A stretch of 64,000 nt of DNA from Bdellovibrionia bacterium (GCA_049424145.1 JBMSSC010000001.1:16017-80016); one strand, 5' to 3'; counted from the first letter of the stretch, positions 35,238-58,166 are shown. The notes: generated by a model not told the origin, from the sequence alone. A program made the numbers and translations.

Positions 35238-37353
35238 GGTGGAGGCTCAGATTTTCCCTGATGATTCGATCCGAAAACGCTTGGTGGTCACCTTAGCCAT
35301 TGGGGCGGTCTTCACCTGCTTGATCCTCGGGCGTGCTATTTTCATTCAGCTGATGAAACATCCCCGGTTAGAAGCCATGGCTTCTCGTCAGTACCATGCT
35401 CAATCCTTGGTTCAGCCCCGTCGAGGCGTCATTTTCGATCGAAACGGGGAGCGTCTTGCCGTGAGTGTGGATTCCTATAGTTTAGCAGCCAATCCTACTA
35501 AGATCCGAAAGCGCTGGATCTTAGCGCCCCTTTTAGCCAAGGCACTTCGCTCGAGCTCCTCACGATTGATGGAGAAGCTCAGTGAGCCTCGGGAGTTTGT
35601 TTGGATCAAACGGCAGTTGAGCGAGGCGGATCTCAGGGCGTTTAAAAAACTCTCACGCGTTGAATCGAATGATGATCTGCTCGAAGGCTTGTGGTTAGTC
35701 AAGGAAAGTAAGCGAGTTTACCCCCATGCCTCCCTTGCCGCGCATGTTTTAGGCGACGTAAATGTGGATTCAGATGGATTAGAAGGAGTTGAGCTTTGGC
35801 AAAATGAGCGATTGAAGGGAAAAATCCTCAGTGTTTCGGCCATTAAAGATGCCTTGGGTCGGCCAACTTTCATTGATGCAAAAGCCGCATCTCAACTCAC
35901 CGATGGCCAAAGTGTGAGTCTGACCTTGGACTCGGTTCTTCAGTATGAAATTGAGAGACTCCTCTCTGAGGCAGTTCGAAAAACGGGAGCCAAAGGGGGA
36001 TCCGTGATGGTGATGGATGCCCAATCCGGTGACCTGTTGGCTTTGGCCAATGAGCCCACGTTTGATCCCAATCAAAAGGGAATTCCCCTGGATCGTCGCC
36101 GAAACCGCGTGTTGACCGATGGCTACGAGCCGGGATCCACGATGAAACCCTTACTTCTTGCTGCGGCCCTCTCAAGTGGAATGAAGCTCAGTGATGAGTT
36201 GTGGGGAGAAAAAGGGAGTTTCATTTTACAAAAACGGAGGATTTCAGAAGCCGAGGCGCATGAAAAATTTGAGTGGATCAGCTTAAAAAAAATCATCCAA
36301 GTCTCCAGCAATGTGGGAGCTGCAAAGTTGGCCTTAAAAGTCGGAGCAGAGCGTTACTTGCAGGTTTTAAGAGCCTTTGGCTTGGGCGCAAAAACCGGAT
36401 CAGGGTTTCCGGGTGAGATTTCAGGCCGAATCCCGCCCAAAAAAGATTGGCAGCCTTTAACGCTAGCAAACATTGGCTTTGGTCAGGGCCTGCTGGTGAC
36501 CCCGATGCAGATGCTGAAGGCCTATGCCGTGTTTGCCAATGGGGGCTTTTTAGTGGAGCCCCATTTGATCCAAGCAGAGGCTCAGTCCAAGGATGAAAAA
36601 CCAGGGGCTCTTGCGCTGTCCCCTTTAAAAAAGCAGGTTCTCTCGCCTCAGGTCACTCAAGCTGTGGTGGAGGCCTTGGAGTCCGTCACTCAAAGCGGAG
36701 GCACGGCACAAAAAGCGGCAATGCCTGGCTACCGAATTGCGGGAAAGACAGGAACCGCTCAGGTGGTCGATCCTCACTCCGGGAAATACTCCCATGATCA
36801 ATACGTGTCCTCGTTCATTGGTTTTCCGGTGGGTTTGGACTCTTCGCTGGTGATCTTCACAGCCTTAAATGAGCCCAAAGGCGTCTACTATGCATCCGAA
36901 ACAGCAGTGCCCTTGTTTAAAGAGGTGCTCAGTGCGCTCATTCATCGCTACAGCTTGCCTGCGGAGCACGAGCCTGAGCTGTCGGTGAAGCCCGTGAAGT
37001 TGGCCAGTGCCTCTCTGTCTGCTCTGCGTTCATCCGGGGGGATGACCCAGGATGAACTTCATTGGACCCAAGCCTCGGTGCAGCAGGCGTCGTTGACCAA
37101 GGGGGACTCGCTGAGCTTAGGCGGATCTCTGCCTCGAGTCGTTCCCGTGCCCCAGACTGAGGACGTCAAACTGAGTCAATGGGTCATGCCCGATCTCCAA
37201 GGGCTTTCACCCAAAGAGGTGCTGGAAGTGCTTCAGGGCTATCCCTTTGCCCTGGAGATGAAGGGGATGGGGATGGTTGCTTCACAGACGCCGATGGCCG
37301 GTCAGCGGCTCTCCAAAAGAAGTCGAGTTCGACTGGTGTTTTCAGAACCTTGA
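35227..37353 (+). CDS. ftsI: peptidoglycan D,D-transpeptidase FtsI (PBP3) with a C-terminal PASTA domain
   Basis: PBP dimerisation and transpeptidase domains (SxxK STMKP, SSN, KTGTA). The last ~65 aa (VMPDLQGLSPKEVLEVLQG…) look like a PASTA domain. Confidence 0.85.
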   Translation: MEPKVEAQIFPDDSIRKRLVVTLAIGAVFTCLILGRAIFIQLMKHPRLEAMASRQYHAQSLVQPRRGVIFDRNGERLAVSVDSYSLAANPTKIRKRWILAPLLAKALRSSSSRLMEKLSEPREFVWIKRQLSEADLRAFKKLSRVESNDDLLEGLWLVKESKRVYPHASLAAHVLGDVNVDSDGLEGVELWQNERLKGKILSVSAIKDALGRPTFIDAKAASQLTDGQSVSLTLDSVLQYEIERLLSEAVRKTGAKGGSVMVMDAQSGDLLALANEPTFDPNQKGIPLDRRRNRVLTDGYEPGSTMKPLLLAAALSSGMKLSDELWGEKGSFILQKRRISEAEAHEKFEWISLKKIIQVSSNVGAAKLALKVGAERYLQVLRAFGLGAKTGSGFPGEISGRIPPKKDWQPLTLANIGFGQGLLVTPMQMLKAYAVFANGGFLVEPHLIQAEAQSKDEKPGALALSPLKKQVLSPQVTQAVVEALESVTQSGGTAQKAAMPGYRIAGKTGTAQVVDPHSGKYSHDQYVSSFIGFPVGLDSSLVIFTALNEPKGVYYASETAVPLFKEVLSALIHRYSLPAEHEPELSVKPVKLASASLSALRSSGGMTQDELHWTQASVQQASLTKGDSLSLGGSLPRVVPVPQTEDVKLSQWVMPDLQGLSPKEVLEVLQGYPFALEMKGMGMVASQTPMAGQRLSKRSRVRLVFSEP

Positions 37354-37403
37354 TGCTAGGCCTAAGAGGAGCGGTAGTCCTCTTGCCCGTCTCAAGGAGA
37401 TTT

Positions 37404-38915
37404 ATGCTGAAACCTCAATTGACTCAACTCACGTTAGTTCAACTCCTGGCGCTCTTACCGAAAGAAATCCTTTCTCCTCAAGATCCCAGCAGGCAAGCCC
37501 TTTTGCATGGCTCTGCTCAGGTCACAGGCGTGACCTCTGATTCAAGAGAAGTGAAGCCAGGCAGTGTGTTTGTGGCCATTTGTGGGGGCACTCAGGATGG
37601 ACATCAATTCATCGATTTAGCTTTAGAAAAAGGCGCCGTTTTTGTGGTCGGTGAGCAACCCATGCCCTCTTCGCAGCTCAAGGGAGTCTATCTCCAGGTT
37701 TCCGATAGTAGGGAGGCCTTAGCAGCCTTGGCCGCTCAATTTTTTCATCATCCCTCCGATGGGCTTTTGGTGCTCGGAGTCACCGGAACGAGTGGAAAAA
37801 CCACCACCACTTTTATTCTGGAGTCCATTTTAGCGGCAGCGGGGCATCGTGTGGGAATCATTGGAACCATTCACTTTCGTGTGGGCAACCAAGTCCTTCC
37901 TTCCACGCACACCACCCCGGGCGCAGCAGAGCTTCAAGGTCTTTTGGCGGAGATGAAAAACGCAGGCTGCACCGCCGTGGTGATGGAGGTGTCCTCTCAT
38001 GCTTTAAAGCAAAAACGAGTGGCATCCGTGGCTTTTGATGGCGTGGTGTTTACTAATCTCTCGCCTGAGCACTTGGATTTTCATCCTGACTTGGAGGATT
38101 ACTTTCAGTCCAAGGCCCTTTTGTTCACTGAGTGCATGAAGTTTTCTCAGTCTCGGGGGAAAAAGCCTGTCATGGCCATCAATTCAGAAGATGAACACGG
38201 CCATCGCCTCCTTCGCACTCTTGCCGCTCCCCACAGTGCGTTTTTACCTCAGCACGCTTTGCAGGTGAGCCCCAGTGGGATCTCAGGGCAGCTGGGTCCT
38301 GTGAAAGTGGAGTCGTCGTTTACGGGGCAATTTAATGGGTCCAACCTATCAGCTGCCGTGACGCTTGCTTTGGCCCTCCAAATCTCCATCCCCTGCATTG
38401 AGCGGGGAATCCGAGACCTCAAAGGGGTCCCTGGGCGTTTAGAGCGAGTCCCCAATGCTCGGGATATTCATGTTTGGGTGGATTATGCTCATAAGCCCGA
38501 TGCTTTAGAGAAGGTGCTCAAAACGTTATCTCTTTTGCGGGGGGGAAACCGCCTCATCACGGTTTTTGGGTGTGGCGGGGATCGAGACCGAAAAAAACGG
38601 CCGCTCATGGGGAGGATCGCAGCTGAAAATTCGGATTGGGTCTTTGTGACTTCGGATAACCCTCGAACCGAAGATCCTCAGGCCATTATGGATGAGATTT
38701 TGGCGGGAATGACGGGGCATTCGCATGTGAGTGTTGAGGTGGATCGAAAAACGGCCATTTTAAAAGCCGCTTGCTTGGCCCGACCCGGAGATCTAGTGGT
38801 GATTGCAGGAAAAGGCCATGAAACCTATCAAATCATGGGCACAACACGGGTGCACTTTGATGATCGAGAGGTGGCAGCCTGGGCCTTTGAGCAAAAAGAG
38901 CCAACCCAGGGCTGA
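37404..38915 (+). CDS. murE: UDP-N-acetylmuramoyl-L-alanyl-D-glutamate--2,6-diaminopimelate ligase
   Basis: Mur ligase P-loop GVTGTSGKTTT. DNPR motif (SDNPRTEDP) typical of MurE. I chose the ATG at 37404 rather than the track start at 37179, which overlaps ftsI. Confidence 0.9.
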   Translation: MLKPQLTQLTLVQLLALLPKEILSPQDPSRQALLHGSAQVTGVTSDSREVKPGSVFVAICGGTQDGHQFIDLALEKGAVFVVGEQPMPSSQLKGVYLQVSDSREALAALAAQFFHHPSDGLLVLGVTGTSGKTTTTFILESILAAAGHRVGIIGTIHFRVGNQVLPSTHTTPGAAELQGLLAEMKNAGCTAVVMEVSSHALKQKRVASVAFDGVVFTNLSPEHLDFHPDLEDYFQSKALLFTECMKFSQSRGKKPVMAINSEDEHGHRLLRTLAAPHSAFLPQHALQVSPSGISGQLGPVKVESSFTGQFNGSNLSAAVTLALALQISIPCIERGIRDLKGVPGRLERVPNARDIHVWVDYAHKPDALEKVLKTLSLLRGGNRLITVFGCGGDRDRKKRPLMGRIAAENSDWVFVTSDNPRTEDPQAIMDEILAGMTGHSHVSVEVDRKTAILKAACLARPGDLVVIAGKGHETYQIMGTTRVHFDDREVAAWAFEQKEPTQG

Positions 38916-38992
38916 GGCGTTGGGGACTTCAGCAGACCCGCACGTGTGGTAAACTCTTGACACCGGCTTTTAAAAATCTGTAGCATTCGGAG

Positions 38993-40069
38993 ATGCTCTT
39001 TCAATTTCTCTATCCGCTTCATGCGAAGTACTCAGTGCTTCATGTGTTTAAGTACATCACCTTTCGGAGTTTCGGTGCCAGCATCACGAGTCTTTTGATC
39101 TGCATGCTCATGGGCCCCTCCTTCATTCGCTTCCTTCAGAGAAAGCAAATGGGGCAGTCCATTCGGGATGACGGACCCAAAAGCCATCTCTCGAAAAAAG
39201 GTACACCCACGATGGGAGGGGGGTTAATTCTCTTTGGGATCGTTCTGCCGACTCTGCTTTGGTCGGATCTGGGAAATAAGAGCGTATGGATTGCTCTAGT
39301 GACCACGATTTTGTTTGGTCTCATTGGGTATGTTGACGATTACCGAAAAGTGATTCAAAAAAACTCCAAGGGCCTCTCCAGTCGTCAGAAGATTGTGAGT
39401 CAAACGCTGGTGGCCTTGGTGGCCGCTTACGTGATTTACGTCACTCGCGATACGCCCCCGGTTTTAAAGTTCCCGTTCTTTAAGGATTGGTCTTTTTATC
39501 TGGGTCTATTTTTTGTGCCCTTTGCTACGTTCGTGATCGTGGGTGCTTCCAATGCGGTCAACCTAACCGATGGTCTCGATGGCCTTGCTGTGGGTCCCAC
39601 CATCACCACTTCAGTCACGTTTCTCGTGCTCGCTTATTGCGCAGGGCATGTGAAGATTGCCGAGTACCTTCAAATTCCCTATGTGCCCGGGGCAGGGGAG
39701 TTAGCCGTATTCTGTGGCTCAGTTGCGGCTTCGTGCTAGGGCATTTTATGGATTAATACCTATCCTGCTCAAGTTTTTATGGGGGATGTGGGGTCGTTGG
39801 CTTTAGGTGCAGCCTTGGCTGTCGTTGCCGTGATCACAAAAAATGAAATCTTGCTTGCACTTTGTGGGGGAATTTTCGTAATTGAAGCCCTCTCGGTGAT
39901 GGCACAGGTGACGTCTTTTAAGATGACAGGGAAAAGGGTCTTAAGAATGGCGCCCATTCATCATCATTTTGAGCTAAAAGGGTGGGCTGAGCCTAAAATT
40001 ATTGTGAGATTTTGGATCATCTCGATTTTATTGGCCCTATTTACTCTCTCGACTTTGAAATTAAGGTAG
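38993..40069 (+). CDS. mraY: phospho-N-acetylmuramoyl-pentapeptide transferase MraY, interrupted by an in-frame TAG at 39737-39739 (possible pseudogene or base-call error)
   Basis: Track ORFs 38993..39739 and 39779..40069 are in the same frame. Codon-by-codon reading gives …[35 protein letters not shown]…, which is co-linear with the E. coli MraY motif …[26 protein letters not shown]…. The stop sits at the conserved Leu. Confidence 0.7.
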
Positions 40070-40084
40070 AGGAAACGTGAATTC

Positions 40085-41470
40085 ATGATGAGCAAGTATC
40101 AAGGTAAAAAAGTTTTAATTGTTGGCTTCGGCATCTCAGGGGTCGCCGTTGCCAAGTACATGTGTAAAAACGGCGCCCGAGTGCTGGTCGCCGATTCGAA
40201 GCAAAAAAATGAGCTGGCCGATTCCTTGGACGCCTGTGCCGGGCTTCCCATCGAGTATGAGCTCGGGTATCCCGCGAATAAACCGTTTCCAGTTGCCGAT
40301 CTCATTGTCCTGAGTCCAGGAGTGCCTCTGAGCATCAAAGGTTTAGAGGAAGCTCGTCAGAGGCAGACCCCGATCACCAATGAGATTGAGCTTGCGGCTT
40401 TAGAGATTCAGCAGCCAATTTTGGCTATCACGGGAACCAATGGGAAAACCACCACCACGACGCTCATCGGTGAGATGTTCAAGGCCGATGGAAAATCAGT
40501 ATTTGTGGGAGGAAACATTGGACAGCCCCTCTTGGATTACGTGACTCAGGGTCAAAAAGCCGATGTGGTGGTCGCTGAGCTGTCGAGCTTTCAACTCGAG
40601 CTCACCGAGAATTTAAAAGTCGCAGGGGCCGTTTTTACCAATCTCGAAGAGGATCACCTAGATCGCTACGGCGACCTGCACTCGTATGGAAACGCCAAGA
40701 AGCGTTTGCTTCGAGCCTGCAATTCACAGAGCTTTGTGGTGCTCAACTGGGACAACCCCAATGTGGCTCAGTTTGAAGCAGAATCGCCCGGTCAAGTGCT
40801 CTGGTTTATGAAGGGTGATCCCATGAAAGTGGGTGGCACTTTTGCGGAGAACTTTCGGGGAGCCTATTTCAACTCTCTGACGAAGAAGGTCATTTTTAGA
40901 AGCAAGGGCCAAGAATCGGTCTTTGATCTCTCCTCCTTTCGATTGTTTGGAGAGCATAATAAAGAGAATCTCATGGCCGCTATTTGCTTGGCTAAGGCTA
41001 TGGACGTGAGCGATGGAGCCATTCAATCGGTCATTCAGCAGTTCAAAGGAGTGAATCATCGCCTGGAGTTTGTGCGAAAAAAAGATGGGGTCTTTTTCTT
41101 CAATGACTCCAAAGGCACGAACGTCATGAGTGTTCAAAAGAGCTTGGCGTCGTTTTCCTCAAACCCGATCATTTTAATTGCAGGGGGGAAGGATAAGAAC
41201 GCAGATTTCACTCCTCTGGTGGACCTGGTGAAGAGGAAGTGTAAGATTTTAGTCCTCTTAGGTGAGGCGAAAGAAAAAATCAATCGAGCCATTGGTGATT
41301 ACGCTGAAACCTACCTGGTGGGTACTTTCGAGGAGGCAATTCTGCTCAGCTATCAAAAGTCCAGAAGCGGAGACATCATTCTTCTGTCCCCGGGTTGCGC
41401 AAGCTATGATATGTTTAAAAACTACGAAGAGCGGGGCAATTATTTCAAGAAACTCGTCTCCCAGCTTTAA
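40085..41470 (+). CDS. murD: UDP-N-acetylmuramoylalanine--D-glutamate ligase
   Basis: N-terminal Rossmann region (KVLIVGFGISG), P-loop GTNGKTTTT, MurD-type C-terminal domain. Confidence 0.9.
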   Translation: MMSKYQGKKVLIVGFGISGVAVAKYMCKNGARVLVADSKQKNELADSLDACAGLPIEYELGYPANKPFPVADLIVLSPGVPLSIKGLEEARQRQTPITNEIELAALEIQQPILAITGTNGKTTTTTLIGEMFKADGKSVFVGGNIGQPLLDYVTQGQKADVVVAELSSFQLELTENLKVAGAVFTNLEEDHLDRYGDLHSYGNAKKRLLRACNSQSFVVLNWDNPNVAQFEAESPGQVLWFMKGDPMKVGGTFAENFRGAYFNSLTKKVIFRSKGQESVFDLSSFRLFGEHNKENLMAAICLAKAMDVSDGAIQSVIQQFKGVNHRLEFVRKKDGVFFFNDSKGTNVMSVQKSLASFSSNPIILIAGGKDKNADFTPLVDLVKRKCKILVLLGEAKEKINRAIGDYAETYLVGTFEEAILLSYQKSRSGDIILLSPGCASYDMFKNYEERGNYFKKLVSQL

Positions 41471-46103: not shown

Positions 46104-47495
46104 TTATTCTTTTGAGAATAAAACCTCTTTCACCTCTTTGGGTTGTACGCCTGAGGCTTGAATCAAAGCGGCTCTGAGTTTTTTTGAGGTAGCAAGCACT
46201 GAGATGGCAAGTTGATCGGGTTTTAAGAAGTGGTTCAGCGCCTGATTGACCTGAGGGAGAGTGAGCTTCCTGAGTTCAGAGGCAAACGACTGCATGAAGC
46301 CTGTTGGAAGCTTGAGAGTTTTCTCCAAGATCTTATTTTCAACCCGCTTTTTAGGCGTGTTGTAGGTGAATCCCGAGCTCTGGATGAGGCTTTGCTGGGC
46401 AAACTCAAACTGCTGGGGCGTGAGTCCATGCTCTTTCAGCTGGGAAATGAGCTGAAGGGAGTGTTTGAGGGCTGCTGCTGCATCCGCTTGGGCAGGGTAC
46501 AGGTGCACGATCCATGAGCGGGGTTCTGTTCCGTGTCGAAATTGGCTGGAAACCCCATAGCTCCAGCCGCGCTTCACTCGAATCTCCTCCATTAAAGTGG
46601 AGGAAAAGGAGGGTCCGCCAAAGGCATGATTGCCCAAGTAAAGGCTGAAGAAATCAGGATCCGTCATCTTCACTCCAATTTGTCCGATGTGGATCTGGGT
46701 TTGAGTGCGATCCGGTTTATCGATGATTAAAAGTCGTCTTGTTTGTGCGTTCTCAGGGCGCCCCAGGGGAGTGGTGAGTCCTAAAGATGCTGTTGTGTTT
46801 GGGGTTTGAGGGGTAGGCGTACTGAGGAGTTTTTGCAGACTCTCGCCTAGGGTTTTTGCCCAAGCTTGGATGGGTTCCACAGGAGAGTCGCCTGAGCCGA
46901 GAATGAAAAGAGAGTCCTCTTTTAAAAGGGCCCGGTGATGAGCGAGCACTTGCTCTCTTGTCATGGATTCAATGTCTGGGGTTCTTCCCAAAACGGAGCG
47001 GCCGTAGGGGTGGTCTTGAAAGAGGAATTGAGTGAAGCTTCGTGTGGCCAAGCTGGAGTCGTGGCCTTTTTCCTCTTGGATTCCCGCGATGATTTCAGCC
47101 TTGAGTTTATCGATCTCCAGTTGTGGGAAAGAGGGCTCCGTCAGGAGTTCGCGTAGAAGGCTTAAGAAAGGGTTCAGTTGACTCGAGAGGACAGCTCCCC
47201 TGAAAATCAATGCCTCAGCTCGGGTCTCCACCTCAAGCTTGGCTCCCCATTGATCTAAAGCTTGATCGATTTGTGCTTTATTCTTCGAGCGTGTGCCCCG
47301 AAGGAGCATCTCCCCCATGAAGTTGGTGAGACCCATTTGCCCCTGGGGGTCTTTCACCGATCCATGGTTGAGCACCACATTGAGGTAGACTAGAGGTAAA
47401 TTTGAATTCTTCTCAAAGTCGACTTCAAGAGCGTGGCCTAAAGTGGCGCTCAGGAAACAGAGATATCCCAGTAGTGTCAGCACCCAGGGTTTCAT
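46104..47495 (-). CDS. M16-family peptidase, non-catalytic-type subunit (no HxxEH)
   Basis: Signal peptide (LLGYLCFLSATLGHA). Pitrilysin-like fold, but the zinc-binding inverted motif is absent (…MGLTNFMGEMLLRGT…). It overlaps the upstream M16 gene by 4 nt. Confidence 0.8.
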   Translation of the reverse strand: MKPWVLTLLGYLCFLSATLGHALEVDFEKNSNLPLVYLNVVLNHGSVKDPQGQMGLTNFMGEMLLRGTRSKNKAQIDQALDQWGAKLEVETRAEALIFRGAVLSSQLNPFLSLLRELLTEPSFPQLEIDKLKAEIIAGIQEEKGHDSSLATRSFTQFLFQDHPYGRSVLGRTPDIESMTREQVLAHHRALLKEDSLFILGSGDSPVEPIQAWAKTLGESLQKLLSTPTPQTPNTTASLGLTTPLGRPENAQTRRLLIIDKPDRTQTQIHIGQIGVKMTDPDFFSLYLGNHAFGGPSFSSTLMEEIRVKRGWSYGVSSQFRHGTEPRSWIVHLYPAQADAAAALKHSLQLISQLKEHGLTPQQFEFAQQSLIQSSGFTYNTPKKRVENKILEKTLKLPTGFMQSFASELRKLTLPQVNQALNHFLKPDQLAISVLATSKKLRAALIQASGVQPKEVKEVLFSKE

Positions 47496-48922
47496 GTTCG
47501 AGATCCTTTCTTTTTGAGACGATTCTCAAGCTTTGGGGTCCCAACGATCACGGTGCGTTCGCGGGGCTGAAAGTAGCGTTGAGCAACGCGCTGAATATCA
47601 CGAGGTTTGAGTGCGTCGACGGCTTTTTGCAGCTGAAGCCCCGCCTGAAAATCTCCGTGAAGCGTTTCATGGTGTCCTAAGAACATGGCTTTTGAGAAGT
47701 TCGAGCTCAATCCCTCGTAGAAGCTAAAGTTGAACTTGTTCTTAGCCTTTTGCAGTTCCTGGGTTGAGATGAGCGAGGTTTGAAGAACCGACAACTCATT
47801 TAAAATCACCTTCTCCGCCTGCTCAGCTCGTTTTCCTTGTTGCAGGGTGGCAGAAATCACGAATAACGATGGGTCTTTATTTCCATAGTTTCCACAATCC
47901 ACAGCGCTTGCGATGCCTGTCTCCACAAGGGCTTGATTCAGGCGGCTGCTCTTACTGCCTGCTAAGAGGTTTTGTAAGACCTCCAGAGCGGCAGTGTCCG
48001 GGCTTTGGGCTTGAGGCGAGTGGTAGCCCATTAAGATTTTCTCAAGCTCGATGTTGAGCTTGAGTTCCTTTTTTCTAAAAGCCATCTGAGGAGGTTCTTT
48101 AGGAACAAAGTGCGGAAGATCCACCTCCGCATCCACAGATCCGTAATACTTCTGAGCAAGTTTGAGCACGTCCTGGGTGTTCACGTCTCCTACGACCACT
48201 ACGGTGGCATGGGCTGGACTATAGAACCTCCGGTAAAACGCCATCGCATCGGCTGGACGCATTGCGTTTAAGTCCTTCTCATAGCCGATCACAGGCCAGT
48301 GATAGGGGTGTCGTTTAAAAGCTAGATCAAAAAGACTTTCCTCAAGTGTTCCATCCTGACTATTTTCAGTTCTCAGTCGACGCTCGTTTTGAACGACCTC
48401 TCGCTCGGTTTTAAATCCCTTTTCGTCAATCACAAGCTGGGTCATTCGATCGGACTCAAGCTTCATGACGAGCTCAAGTTGATCTTTGGGGAGTTCCTGC
48501 ACGTAGGCCGTGTAGTCATGAGAAGTAAACGCATTTTCTCCTAAAACCCCTGCCTTTTCTAAAAGACGATCAAATTCGCCTGCCTTGTAATTCTTAGTTC
48601 CTTTGAACATCATGTGTTCAAAGAAATGGGCGAGGCCCGTCTTCCCCACTTGTTCGTCTTTTGAGCCCACCTTGAACCAGGTTTGATAAGCAAAAGTGGG
48701 AGATGCGTGATCTTCCAGAACTAGGATCTTCAGTCCATTGGCCAGATGGAACGTGGTCACTTTAAAATCCCCAACCAAAGGTTTCACTCCGGCCTCAGTT
48801 GAAACTGATTTTTCCTCTACAGCCTTTAAAGGAAGCTCAGCCGCTTCAGAAAGGGAGAAGAAAAATGTGCAGCAAAGCAGTTGCAGGAAGCCTAGCCAGG
48901 TTGCGCGATCGTTTTTATTCAT
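47492..48922 (-). CDS. M16-family zinc peptidase, catalytic-type subunit (HxxEH present)
   Basis: HFFEHMMFKGT inverted zincin motif plus downstream Glu. Signal peptide if translation starts at MNKND (48922). The track start at 48997 adds 25 residues. Confidence 0.8.
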   Translation of the reverse strand: MNKNDRATWLGFLQLLCCTFFFSLSEAAELPLKAVEEKSVSTEAGVKPLVGDFKVTTFHLANGLKILVLEDHASPTFAYQTWFKVGSKDEQVGKTGLAHFFEHMMFKGTKNYKAGEFDRLLEKAGVLGENAFTSHDYTAYVQELPKDQLELVMKLESDRMTQLVIDEKGFKTEREVVQNERRLRTENSQDGTLEESLFDLAFKRHPYHWPVIGYEKDLNAMRPADAMAFYRRFYSPAHATVVVVGDVNTQDVLKLAQKYYGSVDAEVDLPHFVPKEPPQMAFRKKELKLNIELEKILMGYHSPQAQSPDTAALEVLQNLLAGSKSSRLNQALVETGIASAVDCGNYGNKDPSLFVISATLQQGKRAEQAEKVILNELSVLQTSLISTQELQKAKNKFNFSFYEGLSSNFSKAMFLGHHETLHGDFQAGLQLQKAVDALKPRDIQRVAQRYFQPRERTVIVGTPKLENRLKKKGSRT

Positions 48923-49015
48923 GATGGCCTTTTTGCACCTCTTTTGGGTCCGTTCTCTGATCTCCCTAAGATATGCTCTCGCACATCTTTTGTCCAACAG
49001 GTAGAATCAAGACCT

Positions 49016-49843
49016 ATGGTTCACTTCCATTGTAAAAAACTCATGCGTGCAGGTCTAGTGGGAAGTCTGATTCTCATGGGGCTGAGTCTGAGAGCAATTT
49101 TTCATCTCTCGATTTTTACGATTCATGCGATTGAGGTCAGAGGGATTCCTCAGGGTGCAGAGGTTTCAACTGCCTTTGTGTCTGAATCTGACCTCATTGA
49201 GCTTTCAGCCGTTCCTCTTCACGAAGTTTCTCTGTTTCAAATTGGAGTAGTCGAGTTGGAGCGTCGTCTTCAGTCGCATCCATGGGTCTCTCAAGTGAAA
49301 GTCATTCGAGGTTTTCCTCATCGCCTCATCTTGGATGTCCGTCTGAGAAAGCCCGTTGCTGTCTTCTCAGACGGTGGGCATGATTTAAGGTACATGGATG
49401 AGAGTGGAGCAACTTTTGGTCCCATACCGCTCGCTCAGCTCAAACCGTATCCTGTTTTGATGGGGTGCCTCAAAGATCCTGAAGTGGTTGCAAAAGCGCT
49501 GTTATTGATGAAGCAATGGGAGATGGCTTCGATTGGGAAACGGGCTGAGCTCACTTCCATAGATTATGATCGAGATCGAGGCTTCCGAGCAACCATGAGT
49601 TATGGCGCCTTGAAAAGTAAAATGCTGAATACAAAAAAACAAATGAGTCCCTTGCTTCCTGTAAGTGGAAGCCGTTATCGAACTCTAGTTGATTTTGGTC
49701 AAGAAATTGACGGAAAATTACTCTCACGTCTAGAGCAGCTTTCATCGGTTGTTCAATATTTATCCGACTATTCTTTACCCGTTCGTCAAATATGGGTGGA
49801 TGGAGATAAAAAGATTGTTGTCAAATCAGTTCCTCGTTCTTAG
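49016..49843 (+). CDS. ftsQ: cell division protein FtsQ (TM + POTRA + beta domain)
   Basis: TM helix GLVGSLILMGLSL followed by a POTRA-like region (IHAIEVRGIPQ…VKVIRGFPHRLILDVRLRKPVAV). ATG at 49016 chosen. Confidence 0.8.
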   Translation: MVHFHCKKLMRAGLVGSLILMGLSLRAIFHLSIFTIHAIEVRGIPQGAEVSTAFVSESDLIELSAVPLHEVSLFQIGVVELERRLQSHPWVSQVKVIRGFPHRLILDVRLRKPVAVFSDGGHDLRYMDESGATFGPIPLAQLKPYPVLMGCLKDPEVVAKALLLMKQWEMASIGKRAELTSIDYDRDRGFRATMSYGALKSKMLNTKKQMSPLLPVSGSRYRTLVDFGQEIDGKLLSRLEQLSSVVQYLSDYSLPVRQIWVDGDKKIVVKSVPRS

Positions 49844-49947
49844 AATTTAAGAGAGAGGAAATTTTTGCCTATCAATCCTGTGTAAACGAAGAAATCCTGC
49901 CGGGGAAGTGGTTTTGAAAATTCTAATACAGAAGGGTAATTTAAAAT

Positions 49948-51336
49948 ATGTTTGATATCAATCAGTTGGTTGCTCAAGGCGCAAAAATAAAAGTAGTTGG
50001 GGTCGGGGGGAGTGGTTGCAACGCAGTGAATACCATGATTCGCACGGGGCTTGAGGGCGTTGAATTTATAACGGCGAACACCGATCGGCAGGCGTTGGAT
50101 GCTTCTTTGGCTCCTGTGAAACTTGCGATCGGCCAAGAGTTGACCAAAGGGCTTGGAGCCGGAGCGAATCCCGAAGTGGGACGAAATGCTGCTTTAGAAG
50201 ATTACGCAAAAATCTCAGACCTCCTCTCGGGCTCAGACATGGTTTTCATCACTGCCGGTATGGGCGGTGGCACGGGAACAGGAGCCGCACCTGTATTTGC
50301 AAAAATTGCAAAAGAAGTGGGTGCTTTAACGGTGGGTGTGGTGACTAAACCGTTTCTTTTTGAAGGTCGTAAGAGAATGAAGCACGCTGAGCAGGGGATG
50401 AACTGCTTAAGAGAGAGTGTGGACTCGCTCATTACAATTCCAAACCAGAGACTTCTTGCGATTTCAGGCGCTACGTTGTCGATGGTGGATGCATTTAAAA
50501 AAGCTGATGAAGTTTTACTCAATGCAGTGCAGGGGATTTCTGATTTGATCAATCACACCGGTCTGATCAACAGTGACTTTGCCGACGTTAAGACGATTAT
50601 GCAGAATAAGGGCCTTGCCCTTATGGGGATCGGTTACGGGGATGGAGAGCACCGCGCGGTGGAGGCTGCGACCAACGCTATTTCCAGCCCTCTGCTTGAG
50701 GATGTCTCCATTGATGGCGCAACAGGGATCATCATTAATATTACGGGTGGAGAGACTCTGAAGATTCATGAAGTCAATGAGGCGACTACGCTGATTATGG
50801 AAGCGGCTCATGAGGATGCAGAAATCATCTTTGGTACGGTGATTGATGAAGCGTTTAAAGACCGTGTGAAAGTCACGGTGATTGCAACAGGGTTGGGCAA
50901 TAGCATTCGAGCCGCGCAGCAGCCTGAAAGAGTGAAGGAAAAAACGAGCTCCTCTGTTTTTGTTCCGCCTCAATATGCCGTGAATTCAGAGGCCTCTGCG
51001 AATTCCTCAGCTCAAGTGATGCCGCCTGCGCCTCCTGCGGCATTGAACTCCTCTCCCACAGGAGCTTCAGTTGTCGCGGAGTCTCAGCCAGGGGTATCTT
51101 TCAGTGCAGCCTCAGCGGATCCTTTGCTTCAAGCGGGCTCCGCTCATGCTCATGAGCCTCAGGGTCTTTCAGCCATCCCGCCGGTTCCTCCGACCTTGAA
51201 TCCAGGCGTGGGCGCTGAGACAGGAGAATTGGCTCGGGCTCGTTTGATTGCGCAAAAACTGGGAATCACCAACCTAACGGATGATCAGTATGTTCCGCCT
51301 GCGTATCTCAGAAGAGCTCAGGAGCCAGAAATTTAG
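49948..51336 (+). CDS. ftsZ: cell division GTPase FtsZ
   Basis: Tubulin signature GGGTGTG, T7 loop NLDFADV-like (NSDFADVKT), a long disordered linker, and a C-terminal conserved peptide [14 protein letters not shown]. Confidence 0.95.
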
Positions 51337-51397
51337 CTCACAAACCAAGCCCTGAGCGGGAAGGTTCAGGTGCTTAGCAGTCAAATGAATGGGTGAA

Positions 51398-51432
51398 ATA
51401 GCCTCTTTTGAAAAAAAGGGGCTATTTTTTTT
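51398..51432 (+). terminator. rho-independent terminator after ftsZ
   Basis: atagcctctttt / aaaaggggctat, a ~12-bp stem with GAAA loop, followed by a T8 run. Confidence 0.75.
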
Positions 51433-51618
51433 CCTTCCCTCCGGTTCTCCTGTTTTTCCTAGAAAATACCCGAGGTTTCGATCGATCGTGTGAGTGAGTG
51501 TTGTCGCTGACATTCTCGCGTCAGGGGGGCTTTTCACCTACAAGGCCTAGGATCCAAAAAGTCACCCGCGAATCGTCCGATGCTTTTCTCGATCCCATTT
51601 TTAGGGTAACGTACGGAA

Positions 51619-53061
51619 ATGTTGACGACTCACTCATCCCATAAAACAACTTGGGGCCTGATTTGGCTCAGTATCCTGCTGTTTTGGGGAGTCTCTTGGG
51701 AAGCTGAATTTGGAATGGACGCCATGACTTATGCGGGGTTGGCTCGACGGATCCTCATTCATCAAGACTGGAAAACTCTCCATTATTCTTCGCAGGGGTA
51801 TGAGAATTTCTATCAACATCCGCCTCTGGTGATGTGGCTTCTTGCGGGGGTGTTTAAAATCACGGGTGTCGCCAACGAGTGGACCGCGAAGATTCTTCCG
51901 TATCTTTTTTCCCTGGGGACTCTTCTGATGACCATTTTTTGGGGCTCTCAGGCGGCTCAGAGTTCATGGGGAGGTTTTCTTTCGGGCTTGATTCTTTTAA
52001 CTTCGACCCGTTTTATCAAGTATGCGCCGAGCCCGCTTTTAGATGGTTTTTTGGCCTTCTGGCTGATTCTGGGGGGATGGCTCTTGCTTCAATCCTTCAA
52101 TCCCAAAAGTAAGCCTTGGATTTGGGGTCCTCTGCAGGGAGTTTGTCTGGCTGGAGGGTTCTTAACCAAAGGGATGCCGACGCTGCTGCTGTTTTTTGGA
52201 CTGATGGCAAGCTGGATCACTCAGGGAGTGGTGAAGCGATCGAGGAAGGTCAATTTAGGTTTTTTTTTAGCGCTCACTGTCTTGGGTTGGATTCTATCCC
52301 TTTGGCTTTATGTGGGAGACGGACTGAATTATTTGGAGCATTATTGGATTGAGTCGGTCCAAGGGCGCCTGGGAGGGCACTCAGGATGGTTGGATTGGCT
52401 TGCTCCTATGCGTAATTTGTTTAAGGGGTACTGGCCCTGGAACTTGGTTTATTTTTATTCGATCTATGTGATTTGTGTGAAACAGACCAGGGCTAGAAAC
52501 GTCCTGTTTGAGCAAAAAATCACATCTTGGATTCCCCTTCTCGCATCTCTTGGGGTTTTAGGGGGCTTTTCGCTTTCGGGTCATTTCTTAGAACACTACT
52601 TAGTTCCCTTTTATCCCTTTGCCGCGATCGCCAGTGCCGTCTCCATTGCTCAGGTGACTGAACAGTGGAGGGAGGGAGTTACAAGGGTTTTTTTTATTCT
52701 TCTGATTTTTGTTACCCTCCTTCTGGCCACCTTTCCTATTCATACACAAGGGGTGGATTATCAAGATCCTCAGCGTAGGTTGCTGAAACGAGCGGCGAGC
52801 TCCTGTCATGGAGGGATTCGTCGGATTTATCTCTCTGCCGATGAGACGTCGTTTTGGTGGGGCTTGGCGATGGGAACTTGGTATACGCCATGGGATACGC
52901 GGGTTTTGAATCCGTCTGAGATCCCAGTAGATGAAAGGTCCGCACTTTTATTGAGCCGAAGACGAAATGACCTAGCAGGCAGCTGGGTGATGACCTCGTT
53001 GATTGAGGGGGATTTCAGGGTGTACCAGCGTCCAAATTCCCAAGCCTGTCCTGAGCTTTAA
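51619..53061 (+). CDS. GT-C-fold glycosyltransferase (ArnT/PMT family, GT83/GT39-like)
   Basis: First periplasmic loop with acidic motif (SWEAEFGMDAMTYAGLAR), KPPL-like YQHPPLVMWL, ~11 TM helices. 480 aa. Confidence 0.7.
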   Translation: MLTTHSSHKTTWGLIWLSILLFWGVSWEAEFGMDAMTYAGLARRILIHQDWKTLHYSSQGYENFYQHPPLVMWLLAGVFKITGVANEWTAKILPYLFSLGTLLMTIFWGSQAAQSSWGGFLSGLILLTSTRFIKYAPSPLLDGFLAFWLILGGWLLLQSFNPKSKPWIWGPLQGVCLAGGFLTKGMPTLLLFFGLMASWITQGVVKRSRKVNLGFFLALTVLGWILSLWLYVGDGLNYLEHYWIESVQGRLGGHSGWLDWLAPMRNLFKGYWPWNLVYFYSIYVICVKQTRARNVLFEQKITSWIPLLASLGVLGGFSLSGHFLEHYLVPFYPFAAIASAVSIAQVTEQWREGVTRVFFILLIFVTLLLATFPIHTQGVDYQDPQRRLLKRAASSCHGGIRRIYLSADETSFWWGLAMGTWYTPWDTRVLNPSEIPVDERSALLLSRRRNDLAGSWVMTSLIEGDFRVYQRPNSQACPEL

Positions 53062-53146
53062 AAAAACAAGTTCAGGCGTGCTTTTAAACAGGTGCGGTAC
53101 CCGATTCCGCCTGACTGAGAGCGAACTTTGATGTTACTTTTTAAAG

Positions 53147-53626
53147 ATGACATCTCCATCGCTTGAGTTTAAGCCTGTGAACTGGGAGAAAGACTTGGAT
53201 CATGCAGTGCGCTTTCGAGAAGATTCATTCATTTGCAGCTTCGGTGATGCAAAGCGATTTAATCCAAGTGATTATGTGGATGCCTTGATGAGAATGATTA
53301 AAGAGGATCCGGAATCTGCGGTACACATTTGGCTTTCCGAGCAGCTCGTCGGTCAAATGGAGCTAGGGCAGTTTAAGCTGGATCCGAGTGCCGGCTACAT
53401 TGACCTTTGCTACCTGATCCCTGAAATGCGAGGAAAGGGCTATTCTAATTCATTGGACGCGTACGCTATGTCTTTTTTGGGGCGGAGGGGTTTTAAAAAA
53501 GCCTATCTATCGGTGAGTCCGAGCAACAAAAGAGCGATGAGCTATTACGGTCGCATGGGCTGGACTTCCTGCGGAGTGAGACCGGACAGCCCTGAAGTCA
53601 TCCTCATGATAAAGTCAATACCATGA
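53147..53626 (+). CDS. GNAT-family N-acetyltransferase
   Basis: 159 aa. Acetyl-CoA binding motif A region (…RGKGYSNSLDAYAMSFLGRRGFKKAYLSV). Confidence 0.7.
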   Translation: MTSPSLEFKPVNWEKDLDHAVRFREDSFICSFGDAKRFNPSDYVDALMRMIKEDPESAVHIWLSEQLVGQMELGQFKLDPSAGYIDLCYLIPEMRGKGYSNSLDAYAMSFLGRRGFKKAYLSVSPSNKRAMSYYGRMGWTSCGVRPDSPEVILMIKSIP

Positions 53627-54020: not shown

Positions 54021-55439
54021 ATGCAGATACCAAGGATGGCTTTGCTTTTGAGTTTGACTCTCGGGGTCAGTCTCAGTTTTGGGCTGGGTCGTGTGAGCGC
54101 CGCTGATTTTAAACCAGGAGAGCTCATCGTGAAGTACAAAAGCGGAGCGATCCGAACGCGCGCTCAAGTGAATGCACTTTACCAAACTGTGGGAGTCAAA
54201 AGTGCCAATCACTTCTCGGGCGTGATGACTGGGTTTGATCACTGGATCTTGGATGAGGGGGTTAAGCTTCAGGACGCGATTCATGAGGTCAGTCAAAGTG
54301 AGCTCGTCGAATATGCTCAGCCCAACTACGTTCTGCATGTGCTTCCGATCGAAGACGAATCAGAGGATCCTGACTTCACCCCTGCACTTGCCGCTTTGGG
54401 GAAGTGCTGGTTTCCTGGGGTGAGTTTTCCCCCGGGTTGCGAGAAAAAAAGTGCAACTCAGCCTAAGCCAGGGGAGCTGGCTGATAGTCGGCCTGCACTT
54501 CAGGAACCACCGCTTGAGGTGATCCCTTCGTTAAAAGATCCTGATTTGAGTCGTGACTATGGCATGGCCAAGATTCGTGCCAATGAGGCCTGGGCTGTAA
54601 CTCGCGGATCCAAAGAGATCGTGGTGGCTGATATTGATACGGGAATTGACTATAATCATGAGGATTTGGCGTTCAATGTGTGGAGGAATCCTAATCCGGG
54701 AGAGAAGAACGACATCGTGGGATTTGATTTCGTCCATAATGATGGATTGCCATATGACGACAATGGACATGGCACTCACACAGCAGGAACGATTGGAGCT
54801 GTCGGAGGAAACGGGATAGGGACCTCGGGAGTGATTCAGAGGGTCTCCATCATGAGTCTTAAGTTCTTAGATGGGGACGGAAGTGGAACCACTGCCGATG
54901 CGATTCGAGCGATTGATTATGCCATTGAGCATGGCGCCAGGGTCTTGAGTAATAGTTGGGGTGGCCGTGGTGATCCAGATAATCCGGCTCTGAAAGAAGC
55001 GATTGATCGGGTTAAAGCAAAAGATGTGCTTTTTGTCGCAGCAGCCGGCAATGATGGAGTCGATAATGATGGTCCGAACGCGAGTTATCCTGCTGCATTC
55101 ACAACCGAAAACCTGATTTCAGTTGCGGCAACAGATGAGCGAGATGGTTTGGCCTCTTTCTCCAATTATGGAAAAAAGACGACCCACCTTGCAGCACCTG
55201 GAGTGAAGATCTACAGTACGGCTCCAGGGAGTCGCTATAAGAGTCTCTCGGGGACCTCCATGGCGTGTCCCCATGTGGCAGGCGCTGCAGCCTTGCTCTG
55301 GTCTATTCATCCAAACTGGGGCTATCAGAAAATTAAAGAGGTTCTTCTCGGTACCGTAGATCCGGTGTCCTCGCTTGCTCGAAAGACGATCACAGGTGGG
55401 AGGCTTAACGTGGGACGGGCCCTGAATTATTCTGAGTAG
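54021..55439 (+). CDS. secreted subtilisin-like serine protease (S8) with N-terminal propeptide
   Basis: Signal peptide. Catalytic triad motifs DTGIDYNHEDL, HGTHTAG and GTSMACPHVAGAAALL. Confidence 0.85.
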   Translation: MQIPRMALLLSLTLGVSLSFGLGRVSAADFKPGELIVKYKSGAIRTRAQVNALYQTVGVKSANHFSGVMTGFDHWILDEGVKLQDAIHEVSQSELVEYAQPNYVLHVLPIEDESEDPDFTPALAALGKCWFPGVSFPPGCEKKSATQPKPGELADSRPALQEPPLEVIPSLKDPDLSRDYGMAKIRANEAWAVTRGSKEIVVADIDTGIDYNHEDLAFNVWRNPNPGEKNDIVGFDFVHNDGLPYDDNGHGTHTAGTIGAVGGNGIGTSGVIQRVSIMSLKFLDGDGSGTTADAIRAIDYAIEHGARVLSNSWGGRGDPDNPALKEAIDRVKAKDVLFVAAAGNDGVDNDGPNASYPAAFTTENLISVAATDERDGLASFSNYGKKTTHLAAPGVKIYSTAPGSRYKSLSGTSMACPHVAGAAALLWSIHPNWGYQKIKEVLLGTVDPVSSLARKTITGGRLNVGRALNYSE

Positions 55440-55471
55440 ATTGAAAGTGATTTAGATCAAGTCTTGTTTTC

Positions 55472-55504
55472 GGGTAGATCCTTTTGGGTCTGCCCTTTCT
55501 TTTG
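55472..55504 (+). terminator. rho-independent terminator after the first S8 protease
   Basis: gggtagatcc-tttt-gggtctgccc forms a 10-bp stem (2 G·U pairs), followed by tttcttttg. Confidence 0.6.
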
Positions 55505-55577
55505 ATTGCACTCTCATTTTCTTGCAATTCTTTTGAATTCCTTTTAGTTCTTAAATGAAGACTGAAAAGGGGCGCAC

Positions 55578-57020
55578 GTGGGGACAATTCAAAAGATATT
55601 AAGATTCGGCCTAGGGTTTCTCGGGATTGGATTGCTCCATCCTGCTTGGGCCCAGCTACCCTTTGTTCAAGGCGAGGTTTTAGTGAAGTACAAGCAGGGG
55701 GTTCTGCGTGAGCGTGTGAGTATGAATGCGCTTTACGATTCCGTGGGAGCCTCTCGTGTTCATCGGTTTCACGGGGCTGTGGGGAGTTTTGAGAAACTGG
55801 TCTTAGACGATCGCCAGGGAGTGGCCGAGGTCGTTAGTCGCTTACAAAATGAAGATTCTGTGGAATGGGCGCAGCCGAACTACCTTCTTCATCTTCTGCC
55901 GGTATTTCCGGCTGCGGAACGACAAGTGCGTGAGCCGCAAATTGAGACTCTGCCGTTTGCTCCATGGGCATCGGAGTTGGCGGGGTTGAGTCCATGGGAT
56001 GATTCCGGTTCTGAGGCTGAGATCAGCCGTAGGAAGCCAAAAAAAGACCCCTCTTTCGATCGTCCCCGGATTCATCCGCTGCCTCTGCATGAACCTGAGG
56101 TCGTGGTTGATCCCGATTTAGCTCAAGCCTATGGTTTGAGTAAGATTGGGGCGCCTCAGGTCTGGCCGTTTGCTCGCGGGAGTCGCTCCATTATCGTGGC
56201 GGATATCGATACGGGAGTGGATTATAATCATCCAGACTTAGTTTTTAATATTTGGAGAAATCCCCATCCGGTGAAGAACGATTTAGTGGGATTTGATTTT
56301 GTCCACCAAGATGGATTGCCCTACGATGACAATGAACATGGGACCCATGTGGCAGGGATCATTGGGGCGGTCGGGTCCAATGGTCTGGGAGTTTCCGGGG
56401 TGAGTCAGCGGGTCTCAATCATGGTGCTGAAATTCCTCAGTGGATCGGGCTCAGGAACAACCTCCGATGCGATTGAAGCCATTGATTATGCCGTATCGCA
56501 CGGAGCAAAGGTTTTAAATAACAGTTGGGGCAGCTCTGGCGGGTCAGGCAAGGACAATCAGTTGCTGATTGAGGCGTTTCATCGGGCCCGAGATCGGGGA
56601 GTGTTATTCATTGCTGCAGCCGGCAATGAAGGAAATGATAACGACGGCGAAGAAGCGGACTATCCGGCGGCCTTTCATTTGGAAAATGAGATTGCCGTGG
56701 CGGCAAGTGATGAAAAAGATGAGCTTGCTGAGTTCTCCAACTACGGGAAAAAAACCACTCACCTTGCTGCCCCTGGGGTTAACATCTACAGCACGGTTCC
56801 AGGAGGGGGCTATCGGGCGCTTTCAGGATCTTCTATGGCTGCTCCGATGGTGTCCGGAGCAGCGGCTCTGCTTTGGTCTGCACATCCGGATTGGACGGAT
56901 CAACAAATTAAGCAGGCTCTTTTGGATTCAGTCGATGCGATCCCCTCGCTGAAGGCTAAGGTCAGTACGGGGGGAAGACTCAATGTGGCCAATGCATTTT
57001 TTAGGCGCATCGGCCATTAA
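55578..57020 (+). CDS. secreted subtilisin-like serine protease (S8), paralogue of 54021..55439
   Basis: GTG start. Signal peptide. DTGVDYNHPDL, HGTHVAG, GSSMAAPMVSGAAALL. Co-linear with the upstream paralogue. Confidence 0.85.
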   Translation: MGTIQKILRFGLGFLGIGLLHPAWAQLPFVQGEVLVKYKQGVLRERVSMNALYDSVGASRVHRFHGAVGSFEKLVLDDRQGVAEVVSRLQNEDSVEWAQPNYLLHLLPVFPAAERQVREPQIETLPFAPWASELAGLSPWDDSGSEAEISRRKPKKDPSFDRPRIHPLPLHEPEVVVDPDLAQAYGLSKIGAPQVWPFARGSRSIIVADIDTGVDYNHPDLVFNIWRNPHPVKNDLVGFDFVHQDGLPYDDNEHGTHVAGIIGAVGSNGLGVSGVSQRVSIMVLKFLSGSGSGTTSDAIEAIDYAVSHGAKVLNNSWGSSGGSGKDNQLLIEAFHRARDRGVLFIAAAGNEGNDNDGEEADYPAAFHLENEIAVAASDEKDELAEFSNYGKKTTHLAAPGVNIYSTVPGGGYRALSGSSMAAPMVSGAAALLWSAHPDWTDQQIKQALLDSVDAIPSLKAKVSTGGRLNVANAFFRRIGH

Positions 57021-57165: not shown

Positions 57166-57576
57166 TTAAGCAAATTTTCTTGAAAACGTTGCTCCTAAGC
57201 TCTTATGCTCGCGACCCATGGCCGTTAAGACTTCTTTTCGTTCCTGCTCTTCTTTGCAGGAGACGCAAAGAGTCGCCGTCGGACGGGCTTCGAGTCGTCG
57301 GATCTCAATGTCCTCTTGGCACTCTTGACACTCACCAAACGTTCCGTCTTCAATTCGTTTGAGAGCTTCGTCAATTTTTTTAATGTAGAGCGTTTCGCGA
57401 TTTCTGAGTCGCATTCTCATGGCTTGTTCGATGTCAGTGGTGGCTTGATCAATTTCATCGTAGCGATCATCGGCGCAAACACTGAAGTCTTCTCGAACCA
57501 CTCGATCGTTGAATAAAATTTTCTCTCTCTGGGATTCAAAAATTCTTTTGAATTTCCTGATGATTTCCTTTTTCAT
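57166..57576 (-). CDS. DksA/TraR-family C4 zinc-finger protein
   Basis: DxxDxA tip (DEIDQAT). C4 finger CQECQEDIEIRRLEARPTATLCVSC. It overlaps the mglA stop by 4 nt. Confidence 0.8.
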   Translation of the reverse strand: MKKEIIRKFKRIFESQREKILFNDRVVREDFSVCADDRYDEIDQATTDIEQAMRMRLRNRETLYIKKIDEALKRIEDGTFGECQECQEDIEIRRLEARPTATLCVSCKEEQERKEVLTAMGREHKSLGATFSRKFA

Positions 57577-58166
57577 GGTGTTTCTGCCCCCTTAAGTTCA
57601 CGGATGATCGATTGACTGATGGATTGTAGGGTTTCCATAACGCCTTGTCCACTATTTGCAACAGCTTCGAAATAGGGGCGACGCATGGGGTTAAAGGTTG
57701 CTTCCATTTCTGAAATACTCACAACTCCAGGCATATCTCTTTTGTTGTACTGAAAAACAAGAGGTAGTTTGCTGAGATCGTATCCTTGTTTTTCAAGGCT
57801 CTTTTCAAGAGCTTCAAATGCTTCAATATTGGACTCCATTCGTTCGGATTGGCTATCGGCAACAAAGACGATTCCGTCAACGCCTTTGAGAATAAATTGC
57901 CTGGAGACTTCGTAAAACGTTTGCCCAGGAATGGTATAAAGGTGAAAGCGCGTTTTGTAGCCCTTGACCTCGCCGATGGCCAGAGGCAGAAAATCAAAAA
58001 AGAGGGTTCGTTCGTTTTCAGTGCTCAGAGTCACCAGCTTTCCTCGGTGGGCTTGCTGCGTGTGCTCATAAATGTATTGAACGTTGGTTGTTTTTCCGCT
58101 TAATCCAGGACCAAAGTAGATGACTTTGCAGTTAATCTCTTTGGTCGCATAATTGATGAAGCTCAC
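57573..58166 (-). CDS. mglA: Ras-like small GTPase MglA
   Basis: 197 aa. The first half is near-identical to Myxococcus MglA (MSFINY…REINCK…Y.GPGL.GKTTN.QYIY…TLFFDFLP…RFHLYT.PGQ.FY…ILKGVDG.VFVADSQ). Confidence 0.9.
   Translation of the reverse strand: MSFINYATKEINCKVIYFGPGLSGKTTNVQYIYEHTQQAHRGKLVTLSTENERTLFFDFLPLAIGEVKGYKTRFHLYTIPGQTFYEVSRQFILKGVDGIVFVADSQSERMESNIEAFEALEKSLEKQGYDLSKLPLVFQYNKRDMPGVVSISEMEATFNPMRRPYFEAVANSGQGVMETLQSISQSIIRELKGAETP

Follow-up and report, generated by a model that had tools for sequence, protein, structure and literature searches.

In a metagenome-assembled genome (MAG) labelled 'Bdellovibrionia bacterium', the division genes ftsQ and ftsZ follow one another directly at the 3′ end of the division/cell-wall (dcw) cluster, with no ftsA between them. 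Here, we focus on this junction and its surroundings in a 64-kb stretch (the window) of a 96,266-bp contig of that genome; positions are counted from the first nucleotide of the window unless another locus is named. The ftsQ–ftsZ junction is real, and is common to a clade formed by the window MAG and at least five other independent environmental assemblies. We consider it probable, with moderate confidence, that ftsA was deleted cleanly across this clade, that ftsZ now uses what was the ftsA promoter and that FtsA is absent from the genome. In Gracilicutes, FtsA is seen as the universal membrane anchor of FtsZ and as the activator of the divisome, and no report of ftsA loss in Bdellovibrionota was found in the literature.

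The locus consists of ftsQ (49016–49843, stop codon TAG at 49841–49843), a non-coding spacer of 104 bp (49844–49947) and ftsZ (49948–51336), all on the plus strand; the original prediction had placed the end of ftsQ at 49843 and the start of ftsZ at 49948, and these coordinates are exact. FtsQ has 275 amino acids (aa) by the NCBI start, the longest open reading frame (ORF) beginning at a TTG at 48944. It matches Pfam POTRA_1 (31.2 bits, cut-off 23), its translation has a hydrophobic stretch, LVGSLILMGLSL, near the N-terminus, its gene occupies the 3′ end of the dcw cluster and the protein is 100% identical to NCBI MFZ9594503.1, 'FtsQ/DivIB'. PF03799 (FtsQ_DivIB_C), on record for the FtsQ of some relatives, gave no match in the window FtsQ. 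FtsZ, apparently intact at 462 aa with its ATG at 49948, matches Tubulin (PF00091, 165.6 bits) and FtsZ_C (PF12327, 112.4 bits), shows the GGGTGTG motif in its translation and is 100% identical to MFZ9594504.1. Direct reading of the sequence reveals a ribosome-binding site, AGAAGGG, at 49930–49936, and a strong terminator-like hairpin with a 15-pair stem and a T-rich tail lies 3′ of ftsZ at 51395–51438, on the same strand. Both FtsQ and FtsZ are intact. Their NCBI accessions are consecutive, the next gene being MFZ9594505.1, and therefore the NCBI pipeline likewise called no gene between them. That the gap holds no ORF, as had been claimed, was confirmed: nothing plausible is encoded, and among ORFs of 20 aa or more only two reach into the spacer, a 33-aa ORF within the ftsQ 3′ end and a 98-aa ORF that runs antisense across the 5′ end of ftsZ.

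The rarity of this arrangement was gauged against loci around FtsZ relatives, 160 of which were collected from genome and metagenome collections. Comparison rests on a set of 110, taken from the first 131 loci collected, nearly all Bdellovibrionota-like and each with 1.3 kb or more of sequence preceding ftsZ. The genes located between ftsQ and ftsZ in these relatives are bona fide ftsA genes, their products being about 417 aa long with the Pfam domains FtsA and SHS2_FTSA, and they were used to build an FtsA hidden Markov model (HMM). The ftsA gene ends directly before ftsZ, in the canonical order ftsQ–ftsA–ftsZ that is absent from the window, in 108 of the 110 loci. In relatives where both genes were found, ftsQ and ftsZ are 1061–1725 bp apart, as against 104 bp in the window. 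The two exceptions are L081, a relative described below, and L078, a myxobacterium. The original prediction had called an ftsQ followed by ftsZ without ftsA unusual, and these counts bear it out and extend it to a whole clade. Several other candidates were set aside. The high-GC loci L078 (Nannocystaceae by title), L139, L143 and L150 (the last three being metagenome contigs) show no ftsA near ftsZ, yet are uninformative on ftsA loss because ftsZ there lies outside any dcw cluster; L001 was rejected as an ftsA-less locus, since the FtsA HMM finds the FtsA C-terminus in its first 191 bp.

L081, a 3.3-kb contig from JGI whose FtsZ core resembles that of the window more than any other does, carries ftsQ, a gap of 87 bp and ftsZ. 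Further ftsA-less loci were found by FtsZ protein searches followed by inspection of genomic context. A 19-kb contig from ENA (L161) preserves a longer stretch of the cluster, in the order mraY, murD, ftsW, murG, murC, murB, two minus-strand M16 genes, ftsQ, 87 bp and ftsZ. The same ftsQ–ftsZ junction is found in an NCBI assembly (L162, GCA_040384045.1) and in two JGI samples (L163 and L164); in a Logan contig with the same FtsZ (L165), a cut-off upstream ORF ends 87 bp before ftsZ, and in the P0156 contig (JGI 3300059473) a minus-strand M16 gene is followed by a 282-aa gene, a gap of 120 bp and ftsZ. Across these loci, drawn from JGI, ENA, NCBI and Logan, the gap at the junction measures about 87–120 bp, and the FtsZ cores are 93–97% identical to that of the window (91–97% for the window against relatives, varying with the stretch compared). 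The group of the window with L081 and L161 was recovered in all 60 of 60 neighbour-joining bootstraps on FtsQ plus FtsZ, and in 98 of 100 on six concatenated proteins.

The spacer itself is interpreted as an ftsA deletion scar, in which the former ftsA leader has been fused to the former ftsA–ftsZ intergenic region. When the ftsA ORF is removed in silico from L003, L007 and L009, the resulting junctions align collinearly with the window spacer: its first ~75 nt match the relatives' ftsQ–ftsA intergenic region, and its last ~30 nt match their ftsA–ftsZ intergenic region, including the ribosome-binding site AGAAGGGT. The heptamer GAAGGGT is kept just before ftsZ in L003, L007, L009, L002, L081, L161, L162 and L163. 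Over the last ~60 nt of ftsQ and the next ~50 nt, the window and L081 share ~85% of their nucleotides, although identity between their FtsQ proteins is only 34%. No ftsA remnant was found in the spacer, where a permissive tblastn search with the FtsA proteins of 75 relatives gave noise only (E > 0.3). The possibility that the spacer encodes a structured RNA, or a member of a known RNA family, was also considered and rejected, as no Rfam family matched and the predicted fold is no better than that of shuffled sequence (z = +1.35, not significant).

A promoter-like element overlaps the end of ftsQ. The sequence TTGTCA-17 nt-TAGAAT (49818–49846, plus strand), whose second hexamer contains the ftsQ stop codon, fits 10 of the 12 consensus positions, and the pattern TTGnnn-17-TAnnnT recurs in identical register, always with the 17-nt spacing, in 83 of 99 related loci. 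In relatives the element faces ftsA; in the ftsA-less clade it faces ftsZ, ~100 nt upstream of the start codon. From this we infer that ftsZ is transcribed directly from a conserved promoter-like element that formerly belonged to ftsA.

A search for FtsA and for other known anchors returned nothing from the window. The Pfam scan covered all window ORFs of at least 120 aa, and small ORFs in the gaps were read by eye only. Among the scanned ORFs of the 64 kb there is no FtsA (PF14450 with the SHS2 insert PF02491), no SepF (PF04472) and no ZipA; the small gap ORFs, read by eye, show nothing suggestive. Searches of the 64 kb with the FtsA HMM, and by tblastn with the FtsA proteins of 75 relatives, match only MreB (30540–31595); the FtsA-like tblastn match at 30624–31196 was rejected as FtsA because it is MreB, scoring 510 bits on MreB_Mbl. 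The 19-kb L161 contig likewise holds no ftsA. Pende et al. (PMC8178401) report that Gracilicutes, Fusobacteria excepted, possess FtsA alone and lack SepF.

The C-terminus of FtsZ differs from that of its relatives in one of two adjoining elements. The C-terminal peptide occupies 14 residues (445–458; 51280–51321), and in 199 distinct relatives its consensus is DDEYD[IV]PTY[MIL]RRQQ. Four positions are near-invariant: D/E5, P7 and R11 are each found in 199 of 199 and I/V6 in 197 of 199. The original prediction had FtsZ retaining a classical C-terminal peptide. The peptide is indeed present and keeps P7, the aromatic Y9, L10, R11 and R12, but 'classical' overstates the case, as D/E5 is replaced by V and I/V6 by P, and position 13 is A; each of these three residues occurs in none of the 199 relatives. 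Many FtsZ partners bind to this peptide, and for that reason its retention alone does not indicate a membrane tether. Other clade members carry substitutions of their own, again seen in 0 of 199: V10 and Q11 in the peptide of L081/P0131, and P13 in that of P0132. The FtsZ of P0156 ends ...DHEFDSDFFAEKS, with mismatches at 11 of the 14 consensus positions that could reflect a frameshift or an assembly error. The end of this protein (...GITNLTDHEFDSDFFAEKS) has the classical peptide replaced and the upstream helix intact, and may represent either real decay or a frameshift.

Directly upstream of the peptide lies an 18-residue segment, ELARARAIAQRLGITNLT, that is conserved as strongly as the peptide itself in the 199 relatives, with A6, A10, L13 and G14 invariant. 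The helix assigned to this region (FtsZ residues 426–444; 51223–51279, plus strand) is untouched in every ftsA-less clade member. It is present in all Bdellovibrionota FtsZ of loci L001–L076 and missing from the non-Bdellovibrionota FtsZ of L077–L079. AlphaFold2 predicts a helix at residues 425–437, the block having a pLDDT (predicted local distance difference test) score of ~59–76. Its hydrophobic moment over 18 residues is 0.10–0.17, as against 0.51 for the membrane helix of relatives' FtsA, and this value is too low for a membrane-targeting amphipathic helix, a role that was therefore rejected.

Lineages close to the window have altered FtsA in a different way. In L003, L007, L009, L059, L005 and L084, FtsA is 340–360 aa long and lacks the SHS2/1C insert but retains its actin-like core and, at the C-terminus, the membrane helix NIYDKVRGSMRTWIKDLF (L003:2366–3448; L007:8899–9978; L009:8899–9978; L059:6781–7860; L005:8905–9939; L084:4905–5927). 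The deletion has three different boundaries, one in L003, L007, L009 and L059, one in L005 and one in L084, and therefore subdomain 1C was lost independently at least three times. In multigene trees, a clade recovered in 68–72 of 100 bootstraps unites the window clade with L005 and L007/L009, and also with L002 and L008, whose FtsA is full-length. The FtsN tail docks on subdomain 1C, which also supplies the lateral interface within FtsA double filaments (PMC7613929), and for this reason a natural FtsA without 1C is notable in itself; no report of one was found in the literature. Because close lineages have independently deleted 1C, the loss of ftsA seems to complete a trend towards reduction.

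FtsQ also departs from expectation. At 91–93% FtsZ-core identity, the window FtsQ is only 35–38% identical to that of its closest clade members; in pairs that keep FtsA, at 92–94% FtsZ-core identity, the median FtsQ identity is 58% (range 39.5–63%). The divergence of the window FtsQ thus falls below the range of FtsA-bearing pairs at similar FtsZ distance, and FtsQ evolves unusually fast in the window lineage.

The events that would account for this locus can be outlined as follows. The ftsA ORF would have been excised cleanly from an ftsQ–ftsA–ftsZ unit in the ancestor of a small uncultured Bdellovibrionia clade, and ftsZ would thereafter have been read from the promoter-like element overlapping the ftsQ stop codon. 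FtsA would most likely be gone from the genome, not moved, and on that premise the Z ring would be held at the membrane by another partner that uses the C-terminal region of FtsZ. This putative replacement may dock on the invariant helix, on the partly remodelled peptide or on both.

The chief question, rightly posed in the original prediction, is whether ftsA was lost or relocated. We judge true loss to be the likelier of the two, with some confidence, since the excision is clean and has left a recognisable scar, since each clade member changes near-invariant positions of the FtsZ peptide, and since sister lineages have repeatedly lost FtsA subdomain 1C. The changed peptide, the intact helix and the divergent FtsQ likewise seem easier to explain if FtsZ has switched partners than if ftsA has simply moved, though they amount to no proof. 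Under relocation, a functional ftsA elsewhere in the genome, with its own promoter, would still tether FtsZ, and the junction would be a mere gene-order variant; this we regard as possible but doubtful. It would sit well with the four of five clade peptides that remain recognisable, and with the 86–93% conservation of FtsA among relatives, which suggests strong selection in the group. Displaced ftsA genes are also known elsewhere: the distant, non-Bdellovibrionota locus L140 has an FtsA-like ORF (L140:9172–10539) ~1.8 kb downstream of ftsZ. Relocation is harder to reconcile with the lack of ftsA in the 64 kb of the window and the 19 kb of L161, with an excision that shows no sign of rearrangement, with an ftsA–ftsZ adjacency kept in 108 of 110 relatives, and with the peptides, as every clade member has at a near-invariant position a residue that none of the 199 relatives has, and in one member the motif is gone.

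Several points weigh against the favoured account as a whole. The search for ftsA extended over 64 kb of a 96-kb contig from an incomplete MAG, and no clade member's whole genome was covered, so that ftsA may lie elsewhere. The trees are neighbour-joining trees on few genes, with deeper clade support of only 48–72%. The promoter function ascribed to the element rests solely on its consensus match and its conservation. The change in the P0156 peptide, seen in the protein sequence only, could be a frameshift or an assembly error. Most clade members keep a recognisable D[IV]PxY(V)RR peptide, and therefore some peptide-binding partner is still under selection, possibly a relocated FtsA.

Two further explanations concern the assembly and the helix. 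A chimeric join or a collapsed region could in principle have hidden a true ftsQ–ftsA–ftsZ order behind an assembly or binning artefact, and the assembly of this MAG contig is visibly imperfect, since mraY carries an in-frame stop and a 3231-bp stretch of the window is repeated exactly in tandem. An artefact is nonetheless extremely improbable, as at least five further assemblies, made in different projects and by different assemblers, show the junction with a homologous spacer, and the spacer aligns collinearly with both intergenic regions of the relatives. It is also conceivable that FtsZ needs no tether, the helix before the C-terminal peptide binding the membrane directly and making FtsA dispensable. 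The helix is invariant across the phylum, predicted to be helical by AlphaFold2 and intact where the peptide has degenerated; against this stand its low hydrophobic moment (0.10–0.17 versus 0.51 for the FtsA membrane helix) and its equal conservation in more than 100 FtsA-keeping lineages. Since those lineages conserve it equally, the helix is no compensation for ftsA loss, and we hold a tether-free FtsZ to be very unlikely. A more speculative proposal, which we advance only tentatively, is that the clade is truly without FtsA, SepF and ZipA, and that an undescribed Bdellovibrionota FtsZ partner or tether binds the phylum-wide invariant helix ELARARAIAQRLGITNL. Such a second anchor, if real, would explain the three or more losses of 1C, the single loss of the whole gene and the decay of the peptide with the helix kept.

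Bacteria that divide with FtsZ yet lack ftsA are well known among Actinobacteria and Cyanobacteria (PMC8178401, PMC8871954); what would be new here is their occurrence inside Gracilicutes. In both of those groups, as in the window, ftsQ adjoins ftsZ, the locus lacks ftsA and FtsZ is intact with a C-terminal peptide. Their FtsZ anchor, however, is SepF, which is ancestral in Terrabacteria, whereas the present clade belongs to Gracilicutes and has no SepF among the scanned window ORFs. The loss of ftsA here would also be recent enough to have left a recognisable deletion scar. Cyanobacteria keep an ftsQ–ftsZ doublet without ftsA (PMC8871954), and SepF is essential where FtsA is absent (PMC8178401).

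Compared with the canonical 3′ end of the Bdellovibrionota or proteobacterial dcw cluster, the window retains the flanking genes, the promoter-like element, the ftsZ ribosome-binding site and the FtsZ helix; it differs in having no ftsA ORF of ~1.2 kb, in the unique substitutions of its FtsZ peptide and in its unusually fast-evolving FtsQ. An Escherichia coli FtsA lacking subdomain 1C exists as a laboratory construct. The FtsA proteins of L003, L005, L007, L009, L059 and L084 resemble it in having no SHS2/1C; unlike the construct they are natural, have at least three origins and occur in lineages related to one that appears to have lost ftsA, while the window itself has no FtsA in its 64 kb.

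The remainder of the dcw cluster, assigned by Pfam and lying on the plus strand, comprises genes for a penicillin-binding protein (32505), mraW (33802), ftsL (34869), ftsI (35227), murE (37179), mraY (38993), murD (40085), ftsW (41588), murG (42656), murC (43746) and murB (45083). Between murB and ftsQ, on the minus strand, are two genes for M16 (insulinase-like) peptidases (46104–48997; Peptidase_M16 and Peptidase_M16_C). An M16 pair interrupting the cluster is common to L161, L162, L003, L005, L007, L009 and L084. In the window murE is followed directly by mraY (37179–40085); murF and ddl were found neither in the cluster nor anywhere in the 64 kb by Pfam, and there is no mraZ upstream of mraW. 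The mraY gene contains an in-frame TAG at 39737–39739, inside a conserved region, and the frame runs on to 40072. This codon is one base change from TTG (Leu); it may stem from an error in sequencing or in the consensus, reflect variation within the population or mark a pseudogene of an essential gene.

Elsewhere in the window, 23239–26469 and 26470–29700 form an exact (100%) tandem duplication of 3231 bp, either very recent or an assembly artefact, which contains a gene for a 785-aa RCC1-repeat protein (24085–26442 and 27316–29673) and the 5′ part of an FtsJ/RlmE-like gene. Downstream of ftsZ, genes for an ArnT/PMT-family membrane glycosyltransferase and a GNAT acetyltransferase (51619–53626) precede two tandem S8 subtilase genes (54021–57020); the ArnT/PMT-like gene (51619–53061) was rejected as a shared clade gene, having no tblastn match (E ≤ 1e-8) in any locus collected. 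There are two DksA-like genes, at 5818–6204 and, on the minus strand, at 57166–57576. The latter adjoins a gene for a small Ras/Arf-like GTPase (57573–58166, minus strand), followed by recR and dnaX, and this block is also present in L084.

If ftsA does lie elsewhere in the genome, the junction would represent a rare change of gene order that has put ftsZ under the promoter once used by ftsA. If ftsA has been lost, as we favour, the clade would provide a free-living-looking diderm that has FtsZ, FtsQ, FtsL, FtsW and FtsI together with a full peptidoglycan pathway, and divides without ftsA: a natural experiment on what FtsA is really required for. The graded series formed by relatives with full FtsA, with FtsA lacking 1C and with no FtsA could help to find the compensating factor, and could test the conserved FtsZ helix as a second docking site.

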